A DNA stretch of 64,000 nt from Phycisphaerae bacterium (GCA_020056715.1 JAGVHG010000040.1:11920-75919); one strand, 5' to 3'. Numbered from the stretch's first letter, positions 19,262 through 63,659 are shown. The notes: generated by a model from the sequence alone, not told the origin. Numbers and translations: made by a program.

Positions 19262-19329
19262 CTGGTGCGAGAATGGATTCTCGCACCAGCAAGGATTCTC
19301 GCACCAACGAGGATTTTCGCACCAGCACG
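19262..19329 (+). repeat. family D element (hairpin plus three 18-nt tandem units) in the mrdA-rodA intercistronic spacer
   Basis: ctggtgcgagaat-gg-attctcgcaccag is a hairpin. It is followed by gcaaggattctcgcacca / acgaggattttcgcacca. 28 nt are identical to the reverse complement of 63246-63273 inside pilM. Confidence 0.7.
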
Positions 19330-33026: not shown

Positions 33027-33192
33027 CCAGGAATCCCGCGGGCTGGGAACCCGCGCTCTCGGCCTCGAAACGATCTCCGCCCAACTGACAGAGCATCGCC
33101 CCGGCCATCTGCGACCGACCCGCCTAGGGCGGATCGCTACACAGTAACAAAACGCTGATCCTGGAACGGTCCGTAATGGGCGCTGCTCGTGC

Positions 33193-33235
33193 CGTCAGCC
33201 GAATCCGCCGACCGGCGGATAAGTCGTTCGGCGAG
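33193..33235 (+). repeat. GTCAG-palindrome-CGAG element (variant of the hairpin-module family)
   Basis: cgtcag, then ccgaa-[atccgccg-ac-cggcggat]-aagtcg-ttcgg, then cgag. It has the same head and tail as the 30-nt modules at 51-56 kb, in the same orientation. Confidence 0.5.
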
Positions 33236-33285
33236 CGACGAAACACTCCAGCGGACTTCACTCTACTGTGCCCTCGCCTATCACT

Positions 33286-50111: not shown

Positions 50112-50537
50112 TCAGCCGAAAAAGGCGACGACGCCGACCCCGAAGTGCCGTGACAATGCGCAGATGTGCGATTTGGTTAAGTCTCTGCTGCCTGAGAGGA
50201 TCATGGACGTCGCAGACTCCCCAACGTCCAAGAGCCTTGCCAACTCTCTCTGTGTCATTCGGCGTTCGGCCATGAGATGTCGCAGTACGTCGATTCCCTT
50301 CGCCTTTGGCAGCTTCGGATCGTGATGGGCCTGTTCGAATTCGCGAATCAGCACGACGAGGGCATCAAGGTATTGCCCTTCGCCGGCGGTGAGCTTTCGA
50401 CACAGGCCGATGAGACTGCCGGACACCTTCAAAGCTTCTGCATGTTGGGCGTTGCTTTGTACCTTCTTTAGTGGAAACGTTTGCACAAGAGTAAGGTAAT
50501 CGTCTTTCCGGTCAGTGGCGAGGGTTTTGGGCATCAT
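50112..50537 (-). CDS. higA: HigA-type antitoxin (XRE-family HTH)
   Basis: C-terminal HTH MTQRELARLLDVGESATSMILSG. AGGAG lies 5 nt upstream of ATG 50537, inside the end of higB. Confidence 0.82.
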   Translation of the reverse strand: MMPKTLATDRKDDYLTLVQTFPLKKVQSNAQHAEALKVSGSLIGLCRKLTAGEGQYLDALVVLIREFEQAHHDPKLPKAKGIDVLRHLMAERRMTQRELARLLDVGESATSMILSGSRDLTKSHICALSRHFGVGVVAFFG

Positions 50538-50545
50538 CGTCGCTC

Positions 50546-50866
50546 CTATCCGTATCGCTTCTTCCACTTGTCTTTCGAATATTCGGCGTGCGTGAGGACT
50601 TCTACAACCTGTACGAGTTGCTCTTTGTAGCCGATCTGGGTCAGCAATCGGTAATCGTTCCCGCCCGCATTGAACACCGTCACAACCATTTTCTTCTCAC
50701 CGCTTCCTAGAACGACGCCATCGGCAGAGGGGTACATCCTCTTTAAGTCCAAGAGGCTTTGCCAGCTTGCGGCCATGACGACAGTGCGCCATGCTTCGAG
50801 CCAAGCCCTGACCTGGGGATGTTTCTTCGCCGCTCGGTCAAGTTCGATGGCGTTGAGCAGTTCCAC
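50546..50866 (-). CDS. higB: HigB-family mRNA interferase toxin
   Basis: 106 aa. The pattern ...SWQSLLDLKRMYPSADGV...VFNAGGNDYRLLTQIGYKEQLVQVVEVLTHAEYSKDKW matches the HigB_toxin family. GTG start. Confidence 0.85.
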   Translation of the reverse strand: MELLNAIELDRAAKKHPQVRAWLEAWRTVVMAASWQSLLDLKRMYPSADGVVLGSGEKKMVVTVFNAGGNDYRLLTQIGYKEQLVQVVEVLTHAEYSKDKWKKRYG

Positions 50867-51279: not shown

Positions 51280-51377
51280 ACTGACGGAATCGGCTAGAAA
51301 GGAGGCAGCCTTAACGAGAGAGGGGTATCCGCAAAAAGGTAGCGTAGGAGACGAGATACGGCGACCTTATCAGCCGT

Positions 51378-51407
51378 CAGGCACAGGGCCCTTGAGCCCT
51401 GTGCCGA
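51378..51407 (+). repeat. 30-nt hairpin module (CAG-N9-CCKTGA-N9'-CGA family)
   Basis: cag gcacagggc ccttga gccctgtgc cga. The 9-bp stem is perfect. Confidence 0.8.
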
Positions 51408-51482
51408 CGAATCAATTCCAACAGGCGCTTATCGGATTGCAGCACTTATCGGCGCCTGGCGGGGGAGCAAGGACGGACACAG

Positions 51483-51518
51483 CCGAGCGATCAGGAATTA
51501 CCGAGCGATCAGGAATTA
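51483..51518. repeat. perfect 2 x 18-bp tandem repeat
   Basis: ccgagcgatcaggaatta twice (51483-51500 and 51501-51518). The second unit supplies the stop codon of the acidic-tail ORF. Confidence 0.85.
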
Positions 51519-51788
51519 CTCTTCCTCTTCTTCCACCTCGTCATCGTCATCATCGTCCTCATCGTCGGCATCGTCGTCGGCGAGGAGTTCATCCTCCTCC
51601 TCTTCCTCCTCTTCTTCTTCTTCATCCGCGGCGATGTCGTCGTCCCAGGCCTTGGGGACGGGGGAATCCAACAACATAAGGATGTCTCTCTTCCGCTCAC
51701 GGTACGCCTGAGGGGGGCCGACTCGCAGGCCGAGCCAACCCACAAGCCCGCTCTGCTCAACCAGGAGCCGATCGCACTGATTTAACAT
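51516..51788 (-). CDS. small protein with an extreme poly-acidic C-terminal tail (function unknown)
   Basis: MLNQCDRLLVEQSGLVGWLGLRVGPPQAYRERKRDILMLLDSPVPKAW, then ~45 residues almost entirely D/E. Coding status is uncertain (weak RBS, low-complexity tail). Confidence 0.45.
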   Translation of the reverse strand: MLNQCDRLLVEQSGLVGWLGLRVGPPQAYRERKRDILMLLDSPVPKAWDDDIAADEEEEEEEEEEDELLADDDADDEDDDDDDEVEEEEE

Positions 51789-52014
51789 GTTCGTCGTTCT
51801 CACTGGACCCACGTTCGATCACGCCTGACCGGGCACCCGCGACGCCTCGCGCCTGCACCCGCGTCTTGAGAAGCGGGCAAAGTCTAGTCCGCCGCAAACC
51901 GCCGTCAAGGGGGAAATTTGACCTTCTTGGGAGCCTAATTTTATGCCGCCGGGGGCCTCTCGTTGCCTCCCCCAGGGTGGCGAGTCACAATCCCCCGTCA
52001 GCCGGACCGCCGGT

Positions 52015-52044
52015 CAGCCAAAACGCCCTTGAGCGGTTTGGCGG
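52015..52044 (+). repeat. 30-nt hairpin module
   Basis: cag ccaaaacgc ccttga gcggtttgg cgg. 8 of 9 stem pairs. A truncated head (cag ccggaccgc cggtca) directly precedes it. Confidence 0.75.
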
Positions 52045-52081
52045 ACTTGTTGCCCCTGTGTACGGCGAGGGATCATAAGCG

Positions 52082-52681
52082 ATGCTGCTGACCCGGCGGG
52101 AACTCCCGGTCCTGATCGTCAACCTCATCTACATCCCCGTTTTCACCATCATCGCCCTACGTGAACTGAACTTCGAATTTTTACTTTACATCGGAGTCGT
52201 CCTGGTCGTGGGGGCTTTGGTGGTTTGGAAGCAGCGGAAGGTGCGGTTCGACCTGACGATTCTTTGGGGGTTGACCATATGGGGCCTGCTGCACATGGCC
52301 GGGGGGAACATCCAGGTCGGCGACGATGTGCTCTACGGCCTACAATTGATCCCCGTTGTCCTACGCTACGATCAACTCGTCCATACCTTCGGCTTCGGGA
52401 CGGCCACGCTCGTATGCTACCATCTGCTTCAACCGTATCTACGCGAGGGCATCGACCGTTGGCGTACGCTTTCCGTCCTGATCGTGTTCATGGGTTGCGG
52501 ATTGGGGGCCATCAACGAGATCATTGAGTTCATTGCGGTGAAGACCATCAAGGACACCCATGTCGGCGGTTATGACAACACGCTTTGGGACCTGATCTTC
52601 AACCTCATCGGCGGCGTCTTCGCCGTCGGCTGGCTCACCGTACGGAAACAACGACGGCGGCGAAGAGGCGCTCGGCAATAG
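52082..52681 (+). CDS. integral membrane protein (DUF2238/YjdF-like pattern; tentative)
   Basis: 199 aa, about 6 hydrophobic segments, motifs YDQLVHTFGFG and INEIIEF. Arg-rich C-terminus. Confidence 0.6.
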   Translation: MLLTRRELPVLIVNLIYIPVFTIIALRELNFEFLLYIGVVLVVGALVVWKQRKVRFDLTILWGLTIWGLLHMAGGNIQVGDDVLYGLQLIPVVLRYDQLVHTFGFGTATLVCYHLLQPYLREGIDRWRTLSVLIVFMGCGLGAINEIIEFIAVKTIKDTHVGGYDNTLWDLIFNLIGGVFAVGWLTVRKQRRRRRGARQ

Positions 52682-52760
52682 CCCGCTCTACTCTCAACTT
52701 TCATTAGACATGGTCCGCAGAATTGCTACATACAGCGGATGGGCTTCGTTTGGTCCGCAA

Positions 52761-52800
52761 CAGCCCAAACGCCCTTGAGTCCGCCTGCGGCGGAGGCGAG
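52761..52800 (+). repeat. composite hairpin module (head, first arm and loop, then the palindrome tccgcc-tgc-ggcgga)
   Basis: cag cccaaacgc ccttga g tccgcctgcggcgga ggcgag. 36 of 37 nt are identical to 53823-53859. Confidence 0.8.
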
Positions 52801-52816
52801 GTGACTACCTTCAACA

Positions 52817-52890
52817 TGCGCCCGGCGGGATTCGAACCTGCGACCCCCGGTTTAGGAAACCGGTGCTCTATCCAACTGAGCTACGAGCGC
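52817..52890 (-). tRNA. tRNA-Arg (anticodon CCU)
   Basis: Reverse complement: GCGCTCGTAGCTCAGTTGGATAGAGCACCGGTTTCCTAAACCGGGGGTCGCAGGTTCGAATCCCGCCGGGCGCA. It has a 7-bp acceptor stem (one G-U pair), D-arm GCTCAGTTGGATAGAGC, anticodon stem CCGGT/ACCGG with loop TTCCTAA, and T-arm GCAGG-TTCGAATC-CCGCC-type. No encoded CCA. Confidence 0.9.
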
Positions 52891-52896
52891 TCGAAA

Positions 52897-52926
52897 CAGA
52901 CCAAACGCCCGTGAGCGTTTGGGCGA
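52897..52926 (+). repeat. 30-nt hairpin module
   Basis: cag accaaacgc ccgtga gcgtttggg cga. It lies 7 nt from the tRNA-Arg 5' end. Confidence 0.8.
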
Positions 52927-53009
52927 CGTCAACACTTCAAACGGGCGAGGCAACCACTCCAACCATCGTAACCGTAGGAACCGAGAACCCCAAGGCTGCG
53001 GTCGCCCGC

Positions 53010-53090
53010 GAAGATTGAAGATTGAAGTCCGAAGTCCGAAAATGGCGGAACGCCGATTGCCGTCCGGCCTTCGATCTTCGGACTTCTTCG
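53010..53090. repeat. family B (GAAG/GATCGAAG) inverted-repeat element
   Basis: gaagattgaagattgaagtccgaagtccgaa ... ccttcgatcttcggacttcttcg. The arms are related to those at 24986 and 56132. Confidence 0.6.
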
Positions 53091-53135
53091 TCCGGGAATG
53101 GTCCCCTTTAGAACGCCGCGAACCCTTCATCCCGT

Positions 53136-53165
53136 CAGTTCCACGACCCGTGAGTCGTGGAACGA
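53136..53165 (+). repeat. 30-nt hairpin module
   Basis: cag ttccacgac ccgtga gtcgtggaa cga. The 9-bp stem is perfect. Confidence 0.8.
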
Positions 53166-53273
53166 GGACTCTAACGGCTGATAAACCATTCGTGCATTCG
53201 CGCTTCCGAAGGTGGTCTCGCCCAAAAGTGCTTGAAGTGAAGGGCGGCAGTTCCGCAAACGATAACGATGCAG

Positions 53274-53346
53274 GGAAATGTGGAAACGCCGAAGCCGGGA
53301 AAAGCCGAAATTTCGGCGTTTCAGCGTTTTGACTTTTCCGTTTCGG
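53274..53346. repeat. family A ~74-nt palindromic element (GAAACGCCGAAA type)
   Basis: ggaaatgtggaaacgccgaagccgggaaaagccgaaatttcggcgtttcagcgttttgacttttccgtttcgg. The whole element folds on the centre gaaatttc. Confidence 0.75.
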
Positions 53347-53356
53347 ACGGGGTCGT

Positions 53357-53386
53357 CAGCGGCAAGGCCGGTGAGCCTTGCCGCGA
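53357..53386 (+). repeat. 30-nt hairpin module (loop variant CGGTGA)
   Basis: cag cggcaaggc cggtga gccttgccg cga. The 9-bp stem is perfect. It contains the TTG (53378) that the ORF track uses as the kinase start. Confidence 0.75.
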
Positions 53387-55564
53387 GGAGATGGTGCGCA
53401 CAGCTTGCGAAACTGGTGGAAATCATTTCGAGGGTTCCTCACCGCGGAGGAAGTGCCGCGTTGGTTCGGCCTTTCCGTAGTTCTCATCTACGTCGTGGGA
53501 ATGGGGTCCATCGCCCAGTTCGGCATCGCCCAGGCGCGGCGGGAGACGGCGATCCGTTTCCAGATTGACAGCCAATACGCGGTCAAGCTCCTCGCCGATC
53601 GAATCGAGGCCATCGAGGGCGAGGGCGCAACCGACCCGAAGTGGTTGAGCGTCTGCCAACGAGCGCTGCGGGAGTTCGCGGCCAACGTCCCCGCCAAATC
53701 CGTTCGCGTTGTTGAAGGCCGTCCTCCGGGGCGGATCATCGCCTCGACCAACCCCACGGAAACCGGGACCAGTACCACTCCCGGCGCGCCGGGAGTGGCG
53801 CGTGGGGCGCGAATCGCGGCACACCAAACGCCCTTGAGTCCGCCTGCGGCGGAGGCGAGCGGATCAACCAAGGCATTGCAACCAGGCGGGCTGGAGATCG
53901 CAACGATTTCCTCGAACGGCTCCGAAACGCGGCATCGACTCCTCCGTGCGCCGCTCCACCGTATCCATCAGAGCCGGGAGTCCGCCGCAGGCGGACGACC
54001 GGAATCGACGTACGTGGACCACGCTGCCCAGGAGGCCAATCGGGTCGCTACCGCTCCCCGCTCTGATCAAGACGCCTACCTAGAGGTCATCCTGCCCTTC
54101 GAACCGGTCGAACCGACGAGTCTTGCCAACCAGGCGCGGATGCTGGCCATCGTCCTGGCCGTGCTCGGGGCGTTGTTTGTGGTCTATCGATGTTTGCGCG
54201 AACAGCTTCGCGGACTCTCCAAGATCGCCGGCCGTCTGGAATTGCATCGAGATCGGATTGAAGACGACCTCGCCTCCCTGCGGATCGGTGACGCACTCGA
54301 TGGAGTCACCGTGGGCTGGAATGAACTCGTTGACCTGACCGAGCGACTCCAAACTAGCGTTCAGCGGACCGAGGCCAACGAGGAACTTTCCAGCGTTCTT
54401 CAACGCACAGGCGCTGGGGCGTTGTCCGAAGCGCTCAACGCCGTCCCCGACGGGCTGATGTACATCTCCGATGAAGTTCGCTTCGAGTATCTCAACTCGG
54501 CGGCCCTGCGACTACTCGGGTGGAATGCGCCAGACGCCAACGTCAGCGGCGTGGCCCGTGAGCCACGCCGTGAGAGAAACTATCCGACCCTGATCGATGC
54601 CCAGGCGAACGGACTGGGCCTGAAGCTCTTGGAATTGATTCGCGGCGCCGCCTTGCCGGAGGGCGTTTTTGAAGCGCGGACCGAGGTGCTCGAGGCCGGC
54701 GACGCCGAGGCCCACGACCTCAGTACCTACCGTGTGTGGCTGATTCCCTTGCAGCGCGCCCGTCACCACGGCGAGTGCGTCGTCGTCATCCGTGATGTGA
54801 GCCAGCAGTTTCGCGCCGACCGTGCCCGCGAGGAATTCATCGCCCAGGTGACGCACGAACTACGCACGCCGCTCACCAACATCCGGGCGTATACGGAGAC
54901 CCTTTCCAGCGGCATGTTCGAGGACCCCAAGGTCATCACCGAGTGCTACAACGTGATCACCAAGGAGACCCGCCGGCTGTCGCGTTTGGTGGAGGACATT
55001 CTGAGCGTTTCGCAGTTGGAGGTCGGCTCGATCGAGCTGCACGTGGACAGCGTTGACCTCAAGGTTTTACTGAACGACGGCGTACGCGACGTTCGGGGCC
55101 TCGCCGATGAGAAAAACATCGACGTCCAATTGGTCTTGCCCGCAAAGCTCGAACCGGTCCGCGCCGACCGCGACAAGCTCGCCGTGGTCATCAACAACCT
55201 CCTCGGCAACGCGATCAAGTACACGCCCGCCAACGGTAACGTGATGGTCGGCTGTCAGGTCGCCGCCGACGTCGTGGTGCTCACTTTCAAAGACAACGGC
55301 ATCGGAATCGACCCCTCGGAGCACACCAAGGTCTTTGAGAAGTTCCAGCGCGGCAGCAACCCGGAGGTGCAGAGCGAGTCGGGCACGGGTATCGGTCTCT
55401 ACACGGCCCGCGAGATCGTACGTCGTCACGGAGGGGACATCGAGCTGCTCAGCGAAAAGGGCAAGGGTTCGACCTTTATGGTGCGCTTGCCGCATCGCGA
55501 GAGCCGCGCCGCCGCCGTCAGCACCAACTCCCGTGAGAGTTGGGGCGGTCAGTCCGCGGTGTAA
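53378..55564 (+). CDS. sensor histidine kinase (two TM helices, repeat-colonised extracytoplasmic region, PAS, HisKA, HATPase_c)
   Basis: H-box FIAQVTHELRTPLTNI, N-box NNLLGNAIKYT, G1 DNGIGI, G2 GTGIGLYTAREIV. TM helices FGLSVVLIYVVGMGSIAQFGI and MLAIVLAVLGALFVVY. The start is uncertain (TTG 53378, TTG 53405 or GTG 53453). Confidence 0.88.
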   Translation: MPRGDGAHSLRNWWKSFRGFLTAEEVPRWFGLSVVLIYVVGMGSIAQFGIAQARRETAIRFQIDSQYAVKLLADRIEAIEGEGATDPKWLSVCQRALREFAANVPAKSVRVVEGRPPGRIIASTNPTETGTSTTPGAPGVARGARIAAHQTPLSPPAAEASGSTKALQPGGLEIATISSNGSETRHRLLRAPLHRIHQSRESAAGGRPESTYVDHAAQEANRVATAPRSDQDAYLEVILPFEPVEPTSLANQARMLAIVLAVLGALFVVYRCLREQLRGLSKIAGRLELHRDRIEDDLASLRIGDALDGVTVGWNELVDLTERLQTSVQRTEANEELSSVLQRTGAGALSEALNAVPDGLMYISDEVRFEYLNSAALRLLGWNAPDANVSGVAREPRRERNYPTLIDAQANGLGLKLLELIRGAALPEGVFEARTEVLEAGDAEAHDLSTYRVWLIPLQRARHHGECVVVIRDVSQQFRADRAREEFIAQVTHELRTPLTNIRAYTETLSSGMFEDPKVITECYNVITKETRRLSRLVEDILSVSQLEVGSIELHVDSVDLKVLLNDGVRDVRGLADEKNIDVQLVLPAKLEPVRADRDKLAVVINNLLGNAIKYTPANGNVMVGCQVAADVVVLTFKDNGIGIDPSEHTKVFEKFQRGSNPEVQSESGTGIGLYTAREIVRRHGGDIELLSEKGKGSTFMVRLPHRESRAAAVSTNSRESWGGQSAV
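53776..53797. repeat. perfect 22-nt palindrome, sharing a 19-mer with 56558-56576
   Basis: cactcccggcgcgccgggagtg. The 19-mer tcccggcgcgccgggagtg recurs in the HD-GYP gene. Both are read in the same frame as PGAPGV. Confidence 0.75.
53820..53859 (+). repeat. composite hairpin module inside the kinase ORF
   Basis: cac accaaacgc ccttga g tccgcctgcggcgga ggcgag. Translated as HQTPLSPPAAEAS. Confidence 0.8.
53969..53998 (+). repeat. 30-nt module variant (CAG-N9-[tccgcc-gca-ggcgga]-CGA) inside the kinase ORF
   Basis: cag agccgggag tccgccgcaggcgga cga. Same head, tail and total length as the canonical modules. Confidence 0.6.
54044..54070 (+). repeat. short dispersed repeat (family G variant) inside the kinase ORF
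   Basis: 24 of 27 positions identical to the intergenic copy at 28101-28127. Confidence 0.6.
54544..54573 (+). repeat. 30-nt hairpin module inside the kinase ORF
   Basis: cag cggcgtggc ccgtga gccacgccg tga. The 9-bp stem is perfect. Read as SGVAREPRRE. Confidence 0.8.
55519..55548 (+). repeat. 30-nt hairpin module inside the kinase ORF 3' end
   Basis: cag caccaactc ccgtga gagttgggg cgg. 8 of 9 stem pairs. Read as STNSRESWGG. Confidence 0.78.
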
Positions 55565-55572
55565 CCGGGCGG

Positions 55573-55618
55573 CAGAACCAATCCGTCGGTCTGCGGATGG
55601 GTGTTGGTTCGAGTTTTT
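55573..55618 (+). terminator. CAG-hairpin-CGAG element followed by T5 between the kinase and receiver genes (weak terminator or attenuator candidate)
   Basis: cag aaccaa-tccg tcggtctg cgga tgggtg ttggtt cgag ttttt. This is a 10-bp interrupted stem with an asymmetric bulge. The T-run begins 4 nt after the stem. Confidence 0.3.
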
Positions 55619-55629
55619 GGGATCCGAAT

Positions 55630-56025
55630 ATGGCCAAGATTCTTATTGTCGATGATGACGCCCATATCGTCCGCGTCCTGTCCATGTGGCTGGGTCGGCA
55701 CGGCTACGACGTGGTCACGGCGCGCAACGGCGAGGCGGCTTTGGCGACGCTGGATCGCGAAGAGGTCGACATGATCATCTCGGACATGAACATGCCGGGT
55801 CTGGACGGGGTCGGACTGGCGAAGGCGGTTCGAGCGAAAAGCGGCCCCACGATTCCCATTCTCATGTTGACGGCCCGTTGCGATCAGGAACGTCTCAGTG
55901 AACAGCTTGCGGCGTATGGTGTCCGCGTATACCCCAAACCGTTCCTCCCGTCGCAGTTGGTAGTGGAAATCAACTCCGCCTTCGGCGGATTAGGCGTCGC
56001 CGCCAGTGAGGGTTCGGTATCATGA
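55630..56025 (+). CDS. single-domain CheY-like response regulator
   Basis: MAKILIVDDDAHIVRVLSMWL...VDMIISDMNMPGLDG...PKPF. 131 aa. Its stop forms an ATGA overlap with the next gene. Confidence 0.88.
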   Translation: MAKILIVDDDAHIVRVLSMWLGRHGYDVVTARNGEAALATLDREEVDMIISDMNMPGLDGVGLAKAVRAKSGPTIPILMLTARCDQERLSEQLAAYGVRVYPKPFLPSQLVVEINSAFGGLGVAASEGSVS

Positions 56026-57521
56026 CTCGTCCAAAAAAACAGCATGCTGTTCCGACTTCTCCCGGCGCCCCGGCGACGTCCAAGATCGAAGCATCAGACG
56101 CACGGCCCGTGAGCCGTGCGGCGAGGGAAGGCCCGAAGATCGAAGAACCCGACCGTTTGGGCCTTCGATCTTTGATCTTTGATCTTCGATCTTCGGGTGA
56201 CCTGACCGCGTTGCTGCCGGCTCTGTCGTCGTCGGTCGAACAGTTGATGACCGAGCACCAGGGCATGGCCGACGAATTGCTCTGCCTGTACGAACAGCTC
56301 GGCATCATCTTTGAGATCACCCGCAAGCTCGCCGGGGTTCATAACGAATCCGATGTTCTCGACCTTTTTCTAATCAGCCTGCGACGCAGTTTTGAGGAAC
56401 GGACCGTCTTTGCCGCCCACAGCCGCCCCCGCGGATGGGTGTTGGAAGGGAAACGCGACCGTCATGCGAGCCGACCGGGAAGGGAGGGTCCAGATGGGAG
56501 CGGCGACACGATGGTGGTCAATGAATGGTTGCGCGGACTGCTCGACCGTGCCGCGAATCCCGGCGCGCCGGGAGTGATCGTCGAATCGGCGTTGCCGGGG
56601 GCCATGCCCGGCGCTATCGCCGAGGCCATGATCGCCCCGGTGATCTCCGGCGACGCCCTTGTCTGCTCCCTCGTTCTCCTCCGCACCGAAAAGACGCCTG
56701 CGTTCCGGGCGAGTGAGATGATGTTGATCGAGTCCCTCACCACCTTCTGCGGCGACCTGATCCGCAGCCATCGGCTGGTGCGCGAGCTTCGCGAGATGTC
56801 TCTCACCATGGTGCGGGCCTTGGTCAACGCCATCGATCAGAAGGACGAATACACCTGCGGTCATTCCCTGCGCGTGGCGTACTACGCCACGACGCTGGGT
56901 CAACACCTCGGCTTGGGTGAGGTCGATCTCCAGATGCTCCAGTGGGCCGCGCTCCTCCACGACGTGGGGAAAATCGGGATTCGCGACAACGTCCTTAAGA
57001 AGGAAGGCAAGCTCACTCCCGAAGAGTTCGGGCATATCCAGGAACACCCCGTCCGCAGCCACAAGGTCGTGCAGGAAGTTCCGCAGCTTCTCCGAGCGTT
57101 AGACGGCATTCTTCATCACCACGAACGATACGACGGCTCCGGATACCCCGCAGGGCTGAAGGGGGAACAGATCCCGTACCAGGCACGGATCATTCAGATC
57201 GCCGATGTGTTTGACGCTCTGACCTCCAACCGCTCTTACCGTAAGGCCTTCGACTGGCAGCGGGCCTTAGGAATCCTTCAAGAAGAGGCCGGCAAAACCG
57301 TCGACCCGTGTTTGCAGAAGATCTTCGACACCCTCATCCGCGAGACGCTGAAAGACGAGCCGATGGCATGGGAACGCATGGTCGAACACGCCAACCGTTT
57401 CATGCAGGGTCTGGATGCTCCCGACGACCGAGAGTCAGACGACGCGACCGTCAGACGACGCGACCAAGGCGGGAGCGTCCGGGCGCCGGGAGTCGGCGGA
57501 AATAGAAGGAGAATGACATGA
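56022..57521 (+). CDS. HD-GYP domain protein (predicted c-di-GMP phosphodiesterase) with a GAF-like N-terminal region
   Basis: HSLRVAYYA, LLHDVGKIGI, HHERYDGSGYP. The first ~75 codons consist of repeat elements. An alternative start at ATG 56247 would leave them intergenic. Confidence 0.85.
   Translation: MTRPKKQHAVPTSPGAPATSKIEASDARPVSRAAREGPKIEEPDRLGLRSLIFDLRSSGDLTALLPALSSSVEQLMTEHQGMADELLCLYEQLGIIFEITRKLAGVHNESDVLDLFLISLRRSFEERTVFAAHSRPRGWVLEGKRDRHASRPGREGPDGSGDTMVVNEWLRGLLDRAANPGAPGVIVESALPGAMPGAIAEAMIAPVISGDALVCSLVLLRTEKTPAFRASEMMLIESLTTFCGDLIRSHRLVRELREMSLTMVRALVNAIDQKDEYTCGHSLRVAYYATTLGQHLGLGEVDLQMLQWAALLHDVGKIGIRDNVLKKEGKLTPEEFGHIQEHPVRSHKVVQEVPQLLRALDGILHHHERYDGSGYPAGLKGEQIPYQARIIQIADVFDALTSNRSYRKAFDWQRALGILQEEAGKTVDPCLQKIFDTLIRETLKDEPMAWERMVEHANRFMQGLDAPDDRESDDATVRRRDQGGSVRAPGVGGNRRRMT
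56082..56197. repeat. family B inverted-repeat element with a nested 30-nt hairpin module (56095-56124)
   Basis: Perfect 14-bp arms cccgaagatcgaag (56132-56145) and cttcgatcttcggg (56184-56197). The nested module is cag acgcacggc ccgtga gccgtgcgg cga. Confidence 0.78.
56558..56576. repeat. palindromic 19-mer shared with 53779-53797
   Basis: tcccggcgcgccgggagtg, identical in both genes. Confidence 0.75.
57434..57480 (+). repeat. family E element (16-bp tandem duplication plus a 27-mer shared with pilM)
   Basis: gtcagacgacgcgacc occurs twice (57434-57449 and 57450-57465). gacgacgcgaccaaggcgggagcgtcc (57454-57480) is identical to 63580-63606. Both are read as RRDQGGSV. Confidence 0.8.
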
Positions 57522-58915
57522 CGCTGACACTTCTATTGCCGTGGTTTCCGATCCTCTTGGCCGTCGGCGTCGGCGGACGGTTGTTGGGGCGCAGTCGCGG
57601 CTTCGCCCTCGGCCTGGTGTGCGGGATGTTTTGGATCGTCTTGGTTCAGGCAACCGCCGGAACCGGAGTGTGGAGGCAGCCGTGGGTGGTCGTGACCATG
57701 CTCATCGGCGCCGCGGCGATTTTTCTGATTGGCGGGTGGGCCGGTTCCGCCGAAGGCGGACCGCTCGACGATCTCGCGCCCATCCGAACCCGGAGCGCAA
57801 GCGACGGGTCAAGACCCCGCGCTGGCGCTTGGGGTTCGGATTCCACGGAGCGCTCCTCCGATGAGACGACGATCGCCCTCGACCGGTTCGCAACCGTGAT
57901 CCAGCAGTTCGACGACTGGCTTGTCGAACACCGCGACGATGCCGACCCTTGGCCGTTGTTCGGCGAGTTCATTCGCGGCGCCCTGTATCAATGTTGCAAG
58001 GCGACGCACGTAAAACCATTTCGCTTACTCAGCGAAGGCGAAGAGCTGACGCCGCTCCAATCGTCCCGGTTGGAGCCGGACCCATTTACGGAAGGTAGGC
58101 GAGTTTCCGCTCGGCAGGGGATTCTAGGTCATGTGGTTACGAGCGGTCGATCCTACGTAGAAGGCGACCGGACCCAGGGTGAGCTGATCGAGCAACTAGC
58201 CCAGGCCTGCCCTGAACCGATCGTGTGGTGCTTCGCCATCACCCAAGGCACCCAAAGACTCGGTGCGGTGACGGCGGGTCAACTGGACATCGTTCCCGCA
58301 GACAACCTGGCGCTGCTTCGCGCCGTCGAACAACTTGTCTCGCAATGTTGGTGCCTGCTCGCTGAAACGGTTCACAGCCGCACCGCCGGTCAAGATGACC
58401 CAGGCTCGGGACTCTATAACCGGACCGCGTTCCTCCAGGTCGCAGAGCAATCGTTGCGCGAATCGTACGCTCAAGGTGAACCGGTGGCGATCGCCGTGAT
58501 CGTCGTGGAAGGGATGCGCGAGCTGAACGACGCCGGAAGATGGGAGGTCGCCGATGAACTGGTCCGCGAAGTCGCCGACTCCCTACGCCGCAAGATTCGC
58601 ATGGATGACCGCCTCGGGCGTTTCGACGGTTCGCGTTTCATCTGGCTGCTACGCCGCGTAGACGCCGAGTTGGCGTCGCTGATTGTCAAGCAAGTGATAT
58701 CGCGTCTGACGACGTTGTGCGGCGACCGTAGCCGATGGTCCGCCTCTGGCGGAGCGATCACTGTGCGTTGCGGCGTGGTCGGTAGCGGTACCGGTAGTAG
58801 AAACCCCGACCTCCGCACGCTGGTCTCCCATGCCTTGGTGCAGTCTCGCCGTGCAAGGCTCGAACATGTGACCATCGCCGGCGAACTGGACGCGGCGGAA
58901 ATGTCGAAACGCTGA
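57518..58915 (+). CDS. membrane-anchored GAF-GGDEF protein with a degenerate active site (DGSRF) and an intact RxxD I-site
   Basis: Two N-terminal TM helices and a GAF-like middle region. The GGDEF-fold pattern is GLYNRTAFLQVAEQ...VAIAVIVVEGMRELND...RKIRMDDRLGRFDGSRFIWLL. It has an ATGA overlap with the HD-GYP gene. Confidence 0.8.
   Translation: MTLTLLLPWFPILLAVGVGGRLLGRSRGFALGLVCGMFWIVLVQATAGTGVWRQPWVVVTMLIGAAAIFLIGGWAGSAEGGPLDDLAPIRTRSASDGSRPRAGAWGSDSTERSSDETTIALDRFATVIQQFDDWLVEHRDDADPWPLFGEFIRGALYQCCKATHVKPFRLLSEGEELTPLQSSRLEPDPFTEGRRVSARQGILGHVVTSGRSYVEGDRTQGELIEQLAQACPEPIVWCFAITQGTQRLGAVTAGQLDIVPADNLALLRAVEQLVSQCWCLLAETVHSRTAGQDDPGSGLYNRTAFLQVAEQSLRESYAQGEPVAIAVIVVEGMRELNDAGRWEVADELVREVADSLRRKIRMDDRLGRFDGSRFIWLLRRVDAELASLIVKQVISRLTTLCGDRSRWSASGGAITVRCGVVGSGTGSRNPDLRTLVSHALVQSRRARLEHVTIAGELDAAEMSKR
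57782..57841 (+). repeat. family F 60-bp palindromic element inside the GGDEF-protein ORF
   Basis: Perfect 10-bp termini atccgaaccc / gggttcggat. 53 of 60 positions identical to 62570-62629 inside pilM. Read as IRTRSASDGSRPRAGAWGSD. Confidence 0.85.
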
Positions 58916-58970
58916 AACACCGAAACGCCGAAATTTCGGCTTTTCCCCATTTCGGCGTTTTCGCATTTGG
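58897..58970. repeat. family A ~74-nt palindromic element between the GGDEF gene and the STAS gene
   Basis: ggaaatgtcgaaacgctgaaacaccgaaacgccgaaatttcggcttttccccatttcggcgttttcgcatttgg. It covers the last 6 codons and the stop of the GGDEF gene. Confidence 0.85.
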
Positions 58971-58977
58971 ATAGCCT

Positions 58978-59313: not shown

Positions 59314-59386
59314 GAGAAAGCGGAAACGCCGAAACACCGAAACGCCGAATTTTCGGCTTTTCCCCATTTCGGCGTTTTCGCATTTA
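59313..59386. repeat. family A ~74-nt palindromic element between the STAS gene and the ATPase gene
   Basis: The 55-nt core (59331-59385) differs from 58914-58968 at one position. Confidence 0.85.
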
Positions 59387-59390
59387 GCCG

Positions 59391-61157
59391 ATGCCGAATC
59401 TAACCATCGAAACCGCAGTCCGACTCGGCGACCAGCTCATCCGCGACGGCGTGGTCACGGCTGAGCAACTCGCGGACGCCTTGGCGCGTCAGTCCGCCGC
59501 AGGCGGAGCGGTGCGTATCGGCAAGGCGCTCATGGACGTCGGCGCCATCTCCTCCGCCGCCCTCGTTGGGGCGCTCGCCCGACGGCTTAACGTGAAGGGA
59601 ACTACGCTCCGTCACGGTCTCATCGACCCCAAAGTCGCTAAGTCCATCCCCAAGGAGGAGGCCGAACGGCTGCGCGTGCTGCCCCTGTTCCGGGTGCGCG
59701 ACGAACTCACCGTGGCCATGGTCGATCCGCAATCTCTGCCCGTCCAAGATCGGCTTCGGTCGCTCACCGGCTGCGCGATTCGCTCAGTTCTCGTTCTCGA
59801 GGAAAACCTCGCCGAGTACCAGCAGAAATACCTCGCCGCCGAGGTCACCGTCGATTCCTTCCTCGCCTCGATGGAAGAGTCCGACATTCAGATCACCGAG
59901 TCGGAAGCGATCGACGAAGGCCCGATCACCGACCTCGACAAGATGGTCGAGGGCAGCCCGATCGTAAACCTCATCAACCTCGCCATACTCACCGCCCTCC
60001 GTGCCGGGGCCTCCGACGTGCACATCGAGCCGGACCGCGACGGAACGCACATCCGCTATCGCATCGACGGCGAGTTGCGCGAGATGCTCAAGCCCCCGCG
60101 GGGGATGCACGCCGCGATCGTCTCCCGCGTCAAGGTCATCGGGCGGATGGACATCGCCGAAAAGCGGCTCCCTCAGGAGGGTCGCGTGCATCTCGTCGCT
60201 GACCGTCGCGAGATTGACCTGCGTGTCTCCTCCATGCCCACCGTGCTCGGCGAAAAGATCGTGCTCCGCATTCTCGACAAGGCCAATCTCTCCTTCGAGC
60301 TGGAAACCCTCGGAGTTCGAGGACAGGACCGTTGGGCGATCGAGGCCATGATCCACAGCCCCTACGGCCTGATGCTCGTCACCGGGCCTACCGGCTCCGG
60401 AAAGACCACGACACTATATTCCGCTTTGGATCTCCTCCGCGACGAGTCCACCAACATCGTCACCATCGAGGATCCGGTGGAGTATCAACTGCCGCTCGTC
60501 AACCAGATTCAGGTCAACGAACGAGTGGGGCTGACCTTCGTCCGCGCCCTGCGGTCCATCCTCCGACAAGACCCCGATGTCATCATGGTCGGAGAAATTC
60601 GCGATCAGGACACCGCCCGCGTGGCGATTCAGAGCGCCCTCACCGGCCACTTGGTCCTCTCCACCCTGCACACCAATGACTGCCCCGGCGGCATCATGCG
60701 CCTGGTGGACATGGGCATCGAGCCGTTTCTCCTCACCGCTTCCATCCTCGGCTTCGTCGCCCAGCGGCTCGCCCGCACGATCTGTGCATCTTGCAAAACC
60801 TCCTACTATCCGCCACCCAATTTGCTCAAGCAGGTCGGCTGGGAGAATCGCACCAGCGAACTCTTCCAAAAGGGCGAAGGCTGCCGGGAGTGCAACAACA
60901 CCGGGTTCCGCGGGCGCATCGGCATTTACGAGGTGATGCTGCTGGACGCGGAACTCAAGCAGATGATTCAGAAGAACCCGTCGGAAACCGACATCCGCGT
61001 CTACCTCGCCCAGACCGGATGGCGGACGTTGCGGGAAAAGGCCCTCGACCTGGTCGAGCGCGGTGAATCCACGCTCGAGGAAGTGCTGCGGGTGACGCGC
61101 TCCGAGGCGCTCGACGTCAGTGATCCGTCGGGCGCCGGAAGAGTGGGTGAATCATGA
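59391..61157 (+). CDS. GspE/PilB/MshE-family secretion ATPase with an N-terminal MshEN-type domain
   Basis: Walker A GPTGSGKTTT, Walker B VIMVGEIRD, His box TGHLVLSTLHTN, and the tetra-Cys cluster CASCK...CRECNNTG. The N-terminus is RLGDQLIRDGVVTAEQLADALARQ, then RIGKALMDVGAISSAALVGALARR. Confidence 0.9.
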   Translation: MPNLTIETAVRLGDQLIRDGVVTAEQLADALARQSAAGGAVRIGKALMDVGAISSAALVGALARRLNVKGTTLRHGLIDPKVAKSIPKEEAERLRVLPLFRVRDELTVAMVDPQSLPVQDRLRSLTGCAIRSVLVLEENLAEYQQKYLAAEVTVDSFLASMEESDIQITESEAIDEGPITDLDKMVEGSPIVNLINLAILTALRAGASDVHIEPDRDGTHIRYRIDGELREMLKPPRGMHAAIVSRVKVIGRMDIAEKRLPQEGRVHLVADRREIDLRVSSMPTVLGEKIVLRILDKANLSFELETLGVRGQDRWAIEAMIHSPYGLMLVTGPTGSGKTTTLYSALDLLRDESTNIVTIEDPVEYQLPLVNQIQVNERVGLTFVRALRSILRQDPDVIMVGEIRDQDTARVAIQSALTGHLVLSTLHTNDCPGGIMRLVDMGIEPFLLTASILGFVAQRLARTICASCKTSYYPPPNLLKQVGWENRTSELFQKGEGCRECNNTGFRGRIGIYEVMLLDAELKQMIQKNPSETDIRVYLAQTGWRTLREKALDLVERGESTLEEVLRVTRSEALDVSDPSGAGRVGES

Positions 61158-62378: not shown

Positions 62379-63659
62379 ATGATGGTCGCACTGAAAGCTT
62401 TGCAACGCACCAGCTGGCGCGGCAGTCGAAGCCGGATCGGTCTGGACATAGGCGCAGCTGGTATCCGCGCCGTCCAGTTGAACCGCCAAGCACAGCCGCG
62501 CGGCCCAAGTAGCCCCCGCAGCCTGGACGGTTACGTGGTGACGAACGCCGCCTGTGGCGACCGGAGCCCGTCCGAACCCGGAGCGCAAACGACGGGCCAG
62601 GACCACGCACTAGCGCTTGGGGTTCGGATTCCACCGTTGCTGCCCCGTCAGGTCGAGGATTGTCTGCGCCGAGCAAACGTCCGCGGGAAAGCCGTCGCCG
62701 CCGCCCTGGCGACTCCCGACGTGGAGTTTCATACCCTTGAGTTGCCCGCCGCCGTTTTTCAGGCCGACGAGGTCGAGGCCGCTCAGATCGTGCGATTCGA
62801 AGTGGAACGCCTCATGTCCAACTCGCACGCTCCCGTCGAGACCCGGCATTGGCGACTGCCGCAGACGAACGTGACGGCCCCGAACGCCATCGGCGCGGGC
62901 GCCGCACATGAAATCATCAACGCAACGATCAAAGTCTGTGCCGAGGCGGGGTTGACCTGCACCGATCTGGATACAACCGCCACGGCGCTCAGTCGGTTCG
63001 GCGCTGTGTTGCAGAGCCGACCCAAAGACCAGATATGGGGAGTTCTGGACGTTGGCGATCGTCAAGCCCGCTTGGTGCTTTGCCTCGACGATACGCCGAT
63101 TTTGGTGCGGACGGCGGGCGCCGGTGGACGTGCCTGGACCCAACGCATCGCCGACGCCCTGCAAGTGAGCTTCAAGGCCGCGGAAATCCACAAACGCGAC
63201 CACGGGATCGCCCTGACCGGTCGTGCACTGGTGCGAGAATCTGCACTGGTGCGAGAATCCATTCTCGCACCAGGGGCCCCCCGCCTCCCCCATTATCAAG
63301 GGGGGAAAGAGGGGGTTCGAAGCGAATTGGCCTCGTTGATTCTGGGTGCCGTACGCGCGGACCTCAACGATCTGGCCTCCGAGGTCAAGCGATCGTACGA
63401 GTATGTCCTGAGTTGTTACCCGGGGAGACAGGCCGCTGACTTGGTACTTTGCGGCGGCGGTTCGCTCCTGCACTATTTTCCCGAGTTCCTGGGCAATGCC
63501 TTGGGCATACCCGTGCGTCGAGCGTCGAGCTATCTCCAGAGCGAATCGTGTCGACTTCGCTTCGCCGCCGAGAGGGTCGGACGACGCGACCAAGGCGGGA
63601 GCGTCCACGCTCCCCTCGAAGTCCTCGCCGTGGCCGTGGGACTCGCCATATCAGAGTAG
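62379..63659 (+). CDS. pilM: PilM-like actin-fold pilus assembly protein carrying three in-frame repeat-element insertions
   Basis: N-terminus IGLDIGAAGIRAVQL, then ...VLDVGDRQARLVL..., then C-terminal LVLCGGGSLLHYFPEFL. It is 426 aa; removing the element-derived segments leaves roughly the usual PilM length. Confidence 0.75.
   Translation: MMVALKALQRTSWRGSRSRIGLDIGAAGIRAVQLNRQAQPRGPSSPRSLDGYVVTNAACGDRSPSEPGAQTTGQDHALALGVRIPPLLPRQVEDCLRRANVRGKAVAAALATPDVEFHTLELPAAVFQADEVEAAQIVRFEVERLMSNSHAPVETRHWRLPQTNVTAPNAIGAGAAHEIINATIKVCAEAGLTCTDLDTTATALSRFGAVLQSRPKDQIWGVLDVGDRQARLVLCLDDTPILVRTAGAGGRAWTQRIADALQVSFKAAEIHKRDHGIALTGRALVRESALVRESILAPGAPRLPHYQGGKEGVRSELASLILGAVRADLNDLASEVKRSYEYVLSCYPGRQAADLVLCGGGSLLHYFPEFLGNALGIPVRRASSYLQSESCRLRFAAERVGRRDQGGSVHAPLEVLAVAVGLAISE
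62570..62629 (+). repeat. family F 60-bp palindromic element inside pilM
   Basis: gtccgaaccc...gggttcggat. 53 of 60 positions identical to 57782-57841. It is read in a different frame from that copy (SEPGAQTTGQDHALALGVRI). Confidence 0.85.
63225..63316 (+). repeat. family D element (2 x 18-nt tandem plus hairpin) followed by a C-rich/G-rich hairpin, inside pilM
   Basis: gcactggtgcgagaatct / gcactggtgcgagaatcc / attctcgcaccag. Then ccccccgcctccccc-attatcaa-ggggggaaagaggggg. Read as ALVRESALVRESILAPGAPRLPHYQGGKEG. Confidence 0.8.
63580..63606 (+). repeat. family E 27-mer inside the pilM 3' end
   Basis: Identical to 57454-57480. Confidence 0.8.

Follow-up and report, generated by a model that had tools for sequence, protein, structure and literature searches.

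A contiguous stretch of 64 kb from a Phycisphaerae bacterium (GCA_020056715.1, JAGVHG010000040.1:11920-75919; hereafter the window, scanned as a whole on both strands) carries, in and around a histidine-kinase gene, a cluster of short hairpin modules that all point the same way. Do these modules form one family, do they act as DNA or as RNA, and have they moved? Our main finding is that they are best read as tagged stem-loops of the repetitive extragenic palindromic (REP)-like kind, closest to the CGTC-tagged superfamily, from which they differ in stem, loop, tail and arrangement. The family is real, it is confined to a narrow clade of Phycisphaerae-like planctomycetes, and it is concentrated at the kinase locus.

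Modules were searched for without bias, as any 9-bp stem around a 6-nt loop, and with a covariance model built from the family and run over both strands of the window. Relatives are designated by L-numbers for loci or contigs (L106, L120-L141) and by P-numbers for kinase orthologue proteins. The kinase has a 100%-identical entry on a 141-kb Joint Genome Institute metagenome contig and a graded series of orthologues running from 91% down to about 55% identity; the named carriers are metagenome-assembled genomes (MAGs) of Phycisphaerae, Phycisphaerales or Planctomycetes. Gene order is conserved in these relatives (kinase, response regulator, HD-GYP, GGDEF, STAS, then type IV pilus/type II secretion genes), and the rest of the window holds ordinary chromosomal genes.

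Anatomy of the module family

Eight canonical modules lie between 51.37 and 56.13 kb, every one on the + strand, at the places where a first reading, made from the sequence alone, had put them (stem starts at 51380, 52017, 52899, 53138, 53359, 54546, 55521 and 56097). The pattern exceeds chance: CAG-N9-CCKTGA-N9-CG has 7 matches against 0.12 expected, and the largest count in 100 dinucleotide shuffles of the window was 1. With the covariance model, the eight modules score 44-54 bits, the next-best match is at 33190 (+) with 20.3 bits (E 0.0016), and no match on the - strand of the window is significant. All well-complementary CCKTGA/CGGTGA loops in the window belong to the canonical set; on its - strand, none of these loops has a complementary stem.

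The unit is laid out as CGTCA / G-N8-C / CCKTGA / G-N8'-C / GAGG, that is, a 26-nt hairpin, or 35 nt with head and tail. Its outer G-C and inner C-G pairs are fixed and the eight pairs between them vary. The sequence-only reading had described 9-nt arms behind a (G)TCAG head: the arms are self-complementary as it said, but a further G-C pair, between the last base of CAG and the first base of CG, brings the stem to 10 bp, and the conserved 5' flank is CGTCA. The CCKTGA loop that it gave is right for the window, while the family loop is CC-N-TGA, with position 3 free (CCCTGA, CCATGA, CTTTGA and TGGTGA are also present in relatives).

The family set comprises 56 distinct copies, with 36 distinct cores, from orthologous and other loci of close relatives. 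Its consensus is CGTCA / GCCCAAACGC / CCGTGA / GCGTTTGGGC / GAGG. The head letters are found in 46 (C), 49 (G), 41 (T), 55 (C) and 55 (A) of the 56 copies (73-98% conserved), the stem is always 10 bp long and the loop always 6 nt. Most copies end in a GAG(G) tail, and 12 of the 56 have GAC(G); where the tail is GACG, the tag is predicted by folding to be able to pair with it. Rather than being unrelated, as had been supposed, the stems are variants of one consensus, their positions toggling among two or three bases (C/A, C/G, G/A) around GCCCAAACGC. Transversions dominate the variation between stems, the 5' arm is poor in T and the 3' arm is poor in A.

The proposal of a structured, one-orientation family with covarying stems is well supported by these copies. 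Pairing holds in 95% of stem cells, double changes affect 8 of the 10 pairs and are found in 125 cells, against 41 in shuffles, and the covariation score is 0.60, against 0.17 when shuffled and about 0.06 with slid partners. The copies were gathered partly by demanding pairing, a selection that does not account for the result, because a pattern of head and loop only was used in the window and because of two external negative controls. When the modules are folded as single-stranded DNA, their energies range from -8.6 to -17 kcal/mol (z -2.7 to -7.5), and the 10-bp stem is continuous, with no bulge.

The settings of the modules are diverse. Module 1 (51375..51409, +; CGTCA head, stem GGCACAGGGC/GCCCTGTGCC, loop CCTTGA, tail GACG; 50.4 bits; DNA fold -17 kcal/mol, z -7.5) lies between two minus-strand open reading frames (ORFs) and is antisense to both, and module 2 (52012..52046, +; GGTCA head, stem GCCAAAACGC/GCGGTTTGGC with one A·G mismatch; 44 bits) lies about 40 nt upstream of a gene for a DUF2238 membrane protein. 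A tRNA-Arg(CCT) gene on the - strand (52817..52890) has + strand modules on either side. One is a composite (52756..52800, +; 14.6 bits) placed 16 nt past the 3' end of the gene, which keeps the module head, 5' arm and loop and has its 3' arm swapped for a TCCGCC-TGC-GGCGGA hairpin. The other is module 3 (52894..52928, +; AAACA head, stem GACCAAACGC/GCGTTTGGGC with A·G at pair 2, tail GACG; 46.1 bits), 4 nt from the 5' end of the gene; it has an extra 20-nt partial duplication in L132 and L138. The full inserted unit of module 4 (53131..53171, +; 54.1 bits) is 41 nt long and reads CCCGTCA-GTTCCACGAC-CCGTGA-GTCGTGGAAC-GAGGACTC. Module 5 (53354..53388, +; stem GCGGCAAGGC, loop CGGTGA, tail GAGGAG; 53.9 bits) is in the 5' leader of the histidine kinase, module 6 with its inserted stretch (54541..54586, +; 44.2 bits) is inside the kinase gene, module 7 (55516..55550, +; 50.5 bits) recodes the C-terminal residues of the kinase, and module 8 with its inserted stretch (56092..56132, +; 51.2 bits) is in the 5' part of the HD-GYP gene.

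At its greatest length, the kinase ORF opens with a TTG that belongs to the 3' arm of module 5 (53378-53410), and orthologues begin MRNWWKSF. Comparison of these sequences suggests the TTG at 53405 as the true start, in which case module 5 would belong to the leader and its GAGGAG tail would precede the gene. For the identical kinase (687 aa), the start called in the database is later still and removes the conserved first transmembrane helix.

Two composites and four variants, all noticed in the first reading, proved to be real as well. The second composite (53815..53859, +) lies inside the kinase sensor domain, has 16 nt (TCCGCCTGCGGCGGAG) instead of 7 nt of the 3' arm, and is 91% identical to the composite at 52756-52800. 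The variants, first placed at 33193, 53969, 55573 and 59490, consist of module parts and a second hairpin family, TCCGCC-N3-4-GGCGGA. At 33190..33240 (+), between a deaminase gene and a DUF4215 gene, a CGTCA head and a GAG tail enclose an outer GCCGAA/TTCGGC stem and an inner TCCGCC-GACC-GGCGGA hairpin. At 53966..53998 (+), in a stretch of the kinase sensor domain that varies among orthologues, a TCAG head is followed by TCCGCC-GCA-GGCGGA. The variant at 55567..55618 (+; 13.1 bits), in the spacer between kinase and response regulator, is again nested, with a CAG head, a CGAG tail, outer AACCAA/TTGGTT and an inner degenerate TCCGYC..GCGGA hairpin, and at 59485..59510 (+), in the 5' part of a GspE-like ATPase gene, a CGTCAG head leads directly into TCCGCC-GCA-GGCGGA.

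The second mini-hairpin family itself occurs 10 times in the window against 0.04 expected (23134, 24505, 33204, 52780, 53839, 53981, 55975, 57746, 58739 and 59493). Many of its copies are in ORFs (lnt, response regulator, GGDEF, GspE-like), and nesting within a CGTCA module, in its loop or in one arm, is frequent. In two comparisons of filled and empty sites (53839, and 55975 in the response regulator), its alleles add a net 9 nt.

Gain, loss and replacement among relatives

Comparison with orthologous loci shows that, since the close relatives diverged, many places in the locus have gained a module, lost it or had it replaced, and that modules land in leaders, spacers and tolerant coding stretches. 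The module 4 site is empty in L120 and L123 with clean junctions (CTTCAT joined to TAACGG), which makes this module a clean 41-nt insertion; no target-site duplication of 2 nt or more is present at that junction. At module 6 the window has 46 nt in place of 7 nt in the empty site of L120 and L122 (GCCAAGAAGATGACCCTG), a net gain of 39 nt or 13 codons, and at module 8 it has 41 nt in exchange for 8 nt in the empty site of L120 and L132, a net gain of 33 nt or 11 codons. The HD-GYP start codon, which overlaps the response-regulator stop, is conserved among orthologues.

These comparisons confirm that module copies lie inside genuine ORFs (kinase, HD-GYP). The related idea, that a module is a clean 30-nt indel whose ten codons keep the frame, has to be abandoned, the orthologue alignments giving +39 and +33 nt in genes and a clean 41 nt between genes. 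Survival inside genes is probably limited to net lengths that are multiples of three, which would reflect survivorship and not a 30-nt design. The modules alter proteins of the clade (sensor, PAS region and C-terminus of the kinase, N-terminus of HD-GYP) and produce apparent indels by which gene calling and orthologue alignment can be misled. We also considered CGTCA as a pre-existing target, by analogy with the TTAC target of IS608, and rejected it: the empty sites have no CGTCA, and the head arrives with the insert. Site 56092 departs from this, in that its atypical CATCA head may derive in part from an ATC already present.

Replacement at the same site is also seen. L121 and L122 have a different stem (GCTCCAACGC) and a different tail at exactly the position of module 5, L122 has stem GTCCAAACGC and a different tail at that of module 7, and kinase orthologues without module 7 end ...AAALTAV. 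The flanks of these replacements, at 53354 and 55516, are 94-100% identical; therefore whole units have been swapped, as opposed to stems drifting by slow compensation. At the module 6 site, L121 and L139 have a different palindrome, TCCCGGCGCGCCGGGA, an allele that adds a net 9 nt. The site of the 53815..53859 composite is occupied by a canonical module in L120 and L121, and that of the 55567..55618 variant by a canonical module in L120 and by both forms in L132. The orthologous operons at 75% (L140) and 56% (L141) kinase identity have zero modules in 22 kb each. In the module-free L140 (1-9600), an island next to the same tRNA-Arg(CCT) carries resolvase, HTH_17, AAA_25 and Lon-like genes.

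Beyond the window, modules of this kind are also present at the orthologous loci L120, L121 and L122, all of them in the same orientation; L121 has 10 modules in its first 3.4 kb and none in the other 6.6 kb. Copies are present in relatives at five or more other loci at least, and have dispersed to such unrelated places as the spacer between mraZ and rsmH, a site upstream of tRNA-Ser and the end of a SEC-C-motif gene. The commonest core is itself found in the mraZ-rsmH spacer (four contigs), upstream of tRNA-Ser and at three others. In that spacer (L125, L127, L131 and L137), two tandem modules stand directly 5' of rsmH, the second with its GAGGA tail 3 nt from the rsmH ATG; L137 has the first of them inverted, which makes the sole inverted pair seen.

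A scan of reference genomes for head, loop and tail matched at least 119 loci. Among the 119 matches listed, 118 have stem complementarity at the level of chance and the sole true member is L106, a perfect module right after a stop codon in a Planctomycetota MAG. The same kind of scan on viral contigs gave 29 matches, none of them self-complementary, hence no phage link.

Nature and origin of the modules

All copies of the locus keep one orientation, both within the window and across the orthologous contigs, though the tRNA-Arg gene and two ORFs are on the other strand. The 34 stem cells that are not Watson-Crick include 18 A·G, 6 G·T or T·G, and 7 A·C or C·A, so that G·T is not in excess over A·C and wobble is not favoured, and C-G to G-C flips are common among the stem pairs. 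A T-run follows none of the copies, the next letters being GAGG, GACG or GGTC, and an Rfam search returned the tRNA and no other family. Because the orientation ignores the genes, wobble is not preferred, C-G and G-C exchange often, and neither a T-run nor an Rfam match is present, we regard the module as a strand-specific element acting at the DNA level rather than an RNA motif. Some copies could matter for expression, an effect that would be secondary.

Two particular RNA structures were set aside. An intrinsic (rho-independent) terminator lacks its T-run directly 3' of every copy. A hairpin resembling an iron-responsive element (CAGUGN loop, 5-bp upper stem, bulged C) differs from the CCGUGA loop consensus and the continuous 10-bp stem without bulge; the suggestion of such an RNA, made in the first reading, also meets copies antisense to the flanking genes at 51378 and around the tRNA gene, and stems with no excess of G·T.

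We consider it probable that the modules are lineage-specific REP-like stem-loop DNA repeats with an unpaired CGTCA tag, found in a narrow Phycisphaerae-like clade; of the three explanations offered by the sequence-only reading, the REP-like hairpin of single-stranded DNA fits best. The mobile unit would be about 41-46 nt, made of the head, the hairpin and a tail of 8-15 nt, and would be copied or moved as single-stranded DNA. A structure- and strand-specific enzyme would recognise head, loop and length of the stem, and not its sequence, in the way that HUH-Y1 enzymes (REP-associated tyrosine transposases, RAYT, and the TnpA of IS200/IS605) recognise REPs and transposon ends on the lagging-strand template. 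The diversity of the stems could come from several co-existing sequence types, together with templated correction of one arm against the other within the hairpin, by which a change in one arm would become a paired change.

Several observations weigh against these REP-like repeats. The copy number seems low: the commonest 22-nt core is on only 17 metagenome contigs, about half of them the same locus, and the other 59 kb of the window hold zero canonical copies detectable by the covariance model. Classical REPs form inverted pairs, whereas the modules are head-to-tail. A protein-domain scan of 40 ORFs across the window gave no match to RAYT (Y1-HUH, PF01797) and none to other transposase or recombinase genes. 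Two of the three filled/empty junctions are not clean, 7-8 nt being replaced. As for the lagging-strand idea, GC skew is about -0.03, too weak a guide to the direction of replication.

Selection on RNA is a rather unlikely alternative: the modules would be cis-regulatory hairpins, not mobile DNA, retained for a protein that binds the CCGUGA loop or for the stability or processing of operon mRNA. It would account for the strict conservation of loop and stem length, for the stability of the hairpins, for the fact that most copies away from the locus are sense to the adjoining gene and in its 5' leader, and for tails that stand before genes, a GAGGA 3 nt from the rsmH ATG and, in L120, a GAGGAG ahead of the start of the response-regulator gene. 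It fits poorly with the copy at 51375 between two minus-strand ORFs, with that at 52894 just past the 5' end of a minus-strand tRNA gene and with no plus-strand gene upstream, with copies in coding sequence, and with a presence that varies among near-identical relatives and becomes complete absence from the same operon at 75% identity; neither the lack of preference for G·U nor the Rfam result supports it.

The oddities of the modules are that copies seem few, are piled in 5 kb by a tRNA gene, strictly head-to-tail, replaced at the same site and host to the nested second mini-hairpin family, and that their stems differ mainly by transversions. These features leave some room for a bolder reading, which we hold to be unlikely, namely that the modules are low-copy, orientation-locked hairpin cassettes of about 41 nt, inserted, excised or swapped at CGTCA-tagged positions by a strand-specific enzyme of single-stranded DNA. 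As parts of the same joint claim, and with as little likelihood, the putative enzyme would measure the 10-bp stem between the similar CGTCA head and CGTGA loop, and the second mini-hairpin family (TCCGCC..GGCGGA) would land in module loops and arms.

Quite unlikely, in our judgement, is that the hairpins are no family copies at all but were made on the spot, by break repair or by template-switching during replication at a fragile locus. The two junctions where 7-8 nt are replaced, the two different palindromes at site 54541 across relatives, the 20-nt partial duplication beside module 3 in L132 and the several other small palindrome families crowding the region would all suit such a process; it cannot account for identical heads, loops, tails and stem lengths at unrelated loci and in another MAG, and it fits poorly with identical stems recurring across loci (GCTCCAACGC at two places, GCCGCACGAC at several) and with one clean 41-nt insertion. 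Lastly, it is very improbable that the modules are dif/lox-type sites at which a site-specific recombinase exchanges cassettes: 10-nt inverted arms and a 6-nt centre do resemble the core sites of tyrosine recombinases, which have inverted arms around a short centre, in relatives stem and tail are swapped together, as a unit, at the same position, and the locus adjoins a tRNA gene beside which L140 has an island with a resolvase gene, but arms that vary so freely could not be recognised by a sequence-reading recombinase, the orientation is strictly on one strand although such sites are nearly symmetric, and the 40 ORFs scanned hold no recombinase gene. An origin from the adjacent tRNA sequence was discarded, no similarity being visible by eye.

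The REP-like modules share their neighbourhood with other repeats. The perfect palindrome TCCCGGCGCGCCGGGA(GTG) occurs at 53779-53797 in the kinase ORF and at 56558-56576 in the HD-GYP ORF. An intergenic element of 63-80 nt is present three times (53275-53345, 58890-58976 and 59315-59401), built of 8-nt GAAACNCC periods around the palindrome GAAA(A/C)GCCGAAATTTCGGC(G/T)TTTC; of the three, the one upstream of the kinase is inverted with respect to the others, and in its place relatives have CGTCA modules. Long imperfect inverted repeats made of short tandem GAAGATTGAAG / TTCGATCTT units lie at 53005-53095 and 56125-56200; within the 5' region of HD-GYP they flank module 8, they are found again upstream of the kinase, and in L122 and L135 their place is taken by unrelated sequence with GGCGGA-type hairpins (TCCGCCTCGGCGGA in L122).

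Some of these repeats are in coding sequence. A 48-nt repeat at 57440-57487 (HD-GYP C-terminus) and 63566-63613 encodes '..RRDQGGSV..' and contains CCGTCAG; kinase orthologues P0004, P0005 and P0010 have this peptide as an insertion at two other sites. A 69-nt palindromic repeat (ATCCGAACCC...GGGGTTCGGAT), whose copies at 57778-57846 and 62566-62634 are 90% identical, adds 23 codons to each of two ORFs, those of the GGDEF protein and of a PilM-like protein. A hairpin with a 12-bp stem, CTGGTGCGAGAA-N4-TTCTCGCACCAG, is found at 19262-19289 and, 44 kb away, at 63246-63273, with complementary loops; the second copy adjoins a tandem duplication of TGCACTGGTGCGAGAATC (63224-63259). Just upstream of the module cluster, at 50115-50866, lies a HigB/HigA-type toxin-antitoxin pair.

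Comparison with known repeat families

Four known systems resemble the modules to different degrees. Rickettsia palindromic elements (RPE), a selfish DNA, likewise sit as palindromic repeats in frame in protein-coding genes; the modules do so in tolerant parts of genes, adding 11-17 residues and leaving the gene intact. RPE-1 units are larger, roughly 100-150 bp against about 41 nt for the modules, and reside in an obligate intracellular bacterium, whereas the present host is a planctomycete that we take to be free-living and of high GC content. REPs and REPINs headed by GTAG (GT[AG]G) and served by RAYT (TnpA-REP), whose single-copy gene has the repeats on its flanks, share with the modules an unpaired head followed by a hairpin, a primacy of structure over sequence, sequence types related by paired changes, and presence/absence polymorphism among relatives; the modules differ from them by their CGTCA head, by not being inverted doublets (with one exception, in L137) and by having many copies inside genes.

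The IS200/IS605 elements (IS608, ISDra2) and the class 3 Y1-HUH group follow a logic that is specific for one strand and for single strands, with a hairpin plus a short adjacent motif as the recognition unit, as the modules may do; unlike them, the modules have no transposase gene attached. Class 3 is enriched in Planctomycetes and has atypical flanking hairpins, which can be repeated in the genome, with a CnGA foot at the 5' side (Quentin et al. 2018, PMC6006769). That foot does not fit the CGTCA head and was rejected as a match; by analogy, class 3 may still offer a lead to the mobilising enzyme, mismatched foot notwithstanding.

Most REPs fall into two superfamilies, tagged GTAG and CGTC, in both of which stems are heterogeneous, some units are intragenic and some species have the repeats in clusters; to the CGTC type belong Neisseria dRS3 and Rickettsia RPE-4/RPE-6, and no dedicated transposase is associated with it (Di Nocera et al. 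2013, BMC Genomics 14:522, PMC3733652). The opinion that ordinary REP families do not look like the modules cannot be upheld in view of these descriptions. In the four CGTC families, stems of 8-9 bp start with A-T, loops have 4-5 nt, the tail is CCA (3-nt unpaired), and units form head-to-head dimers; CGTC repeats are negligibly head-to-tail and have tens to thousands of copies dispersed over the genome (PMC3733652). Our results extend tagged REP-like repeats of the CGTC type to Planctomycetota. They also provide a natural experiment, in graded close relatives whose same sites are empty, filled, or occupied by a different stem or a different palindrome, and this series makes addressable the question left in 2013 of the means by which CGTC-type REPs, lacking a dedicated transposase, move, and of whether they are mobile even now. 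The cassette reading, if true, would expose the missing mobilisation mechanism of these transposase-less repeats.

Set against the CGTC-tagged REPs, the modules have a stem of 10 bp with G-C first instead of 8-9 bp with A-T first, a loop of 6 nt instead of 4-5, a GAG/GAC tail instead of CCA, an extra A between tag and stem, and a head-to-tail arrangement in one orientation instead of head-to-head dimers; they appear to be low-copy, and Planctomycetota is not among the five phyla listed for CGTC repeats. What the two share is a short stem-loop repeat of 20-40 bp, present in the window as eight canonical modules and two composites, a conserved CGTC motif at one end outside the stem (46, 49, 41 and 55 of 56 copies), heterogeneity of stems, loops and tails, some intragenic units, clusters in some species, and the lack of a known dedicated transposase gene.

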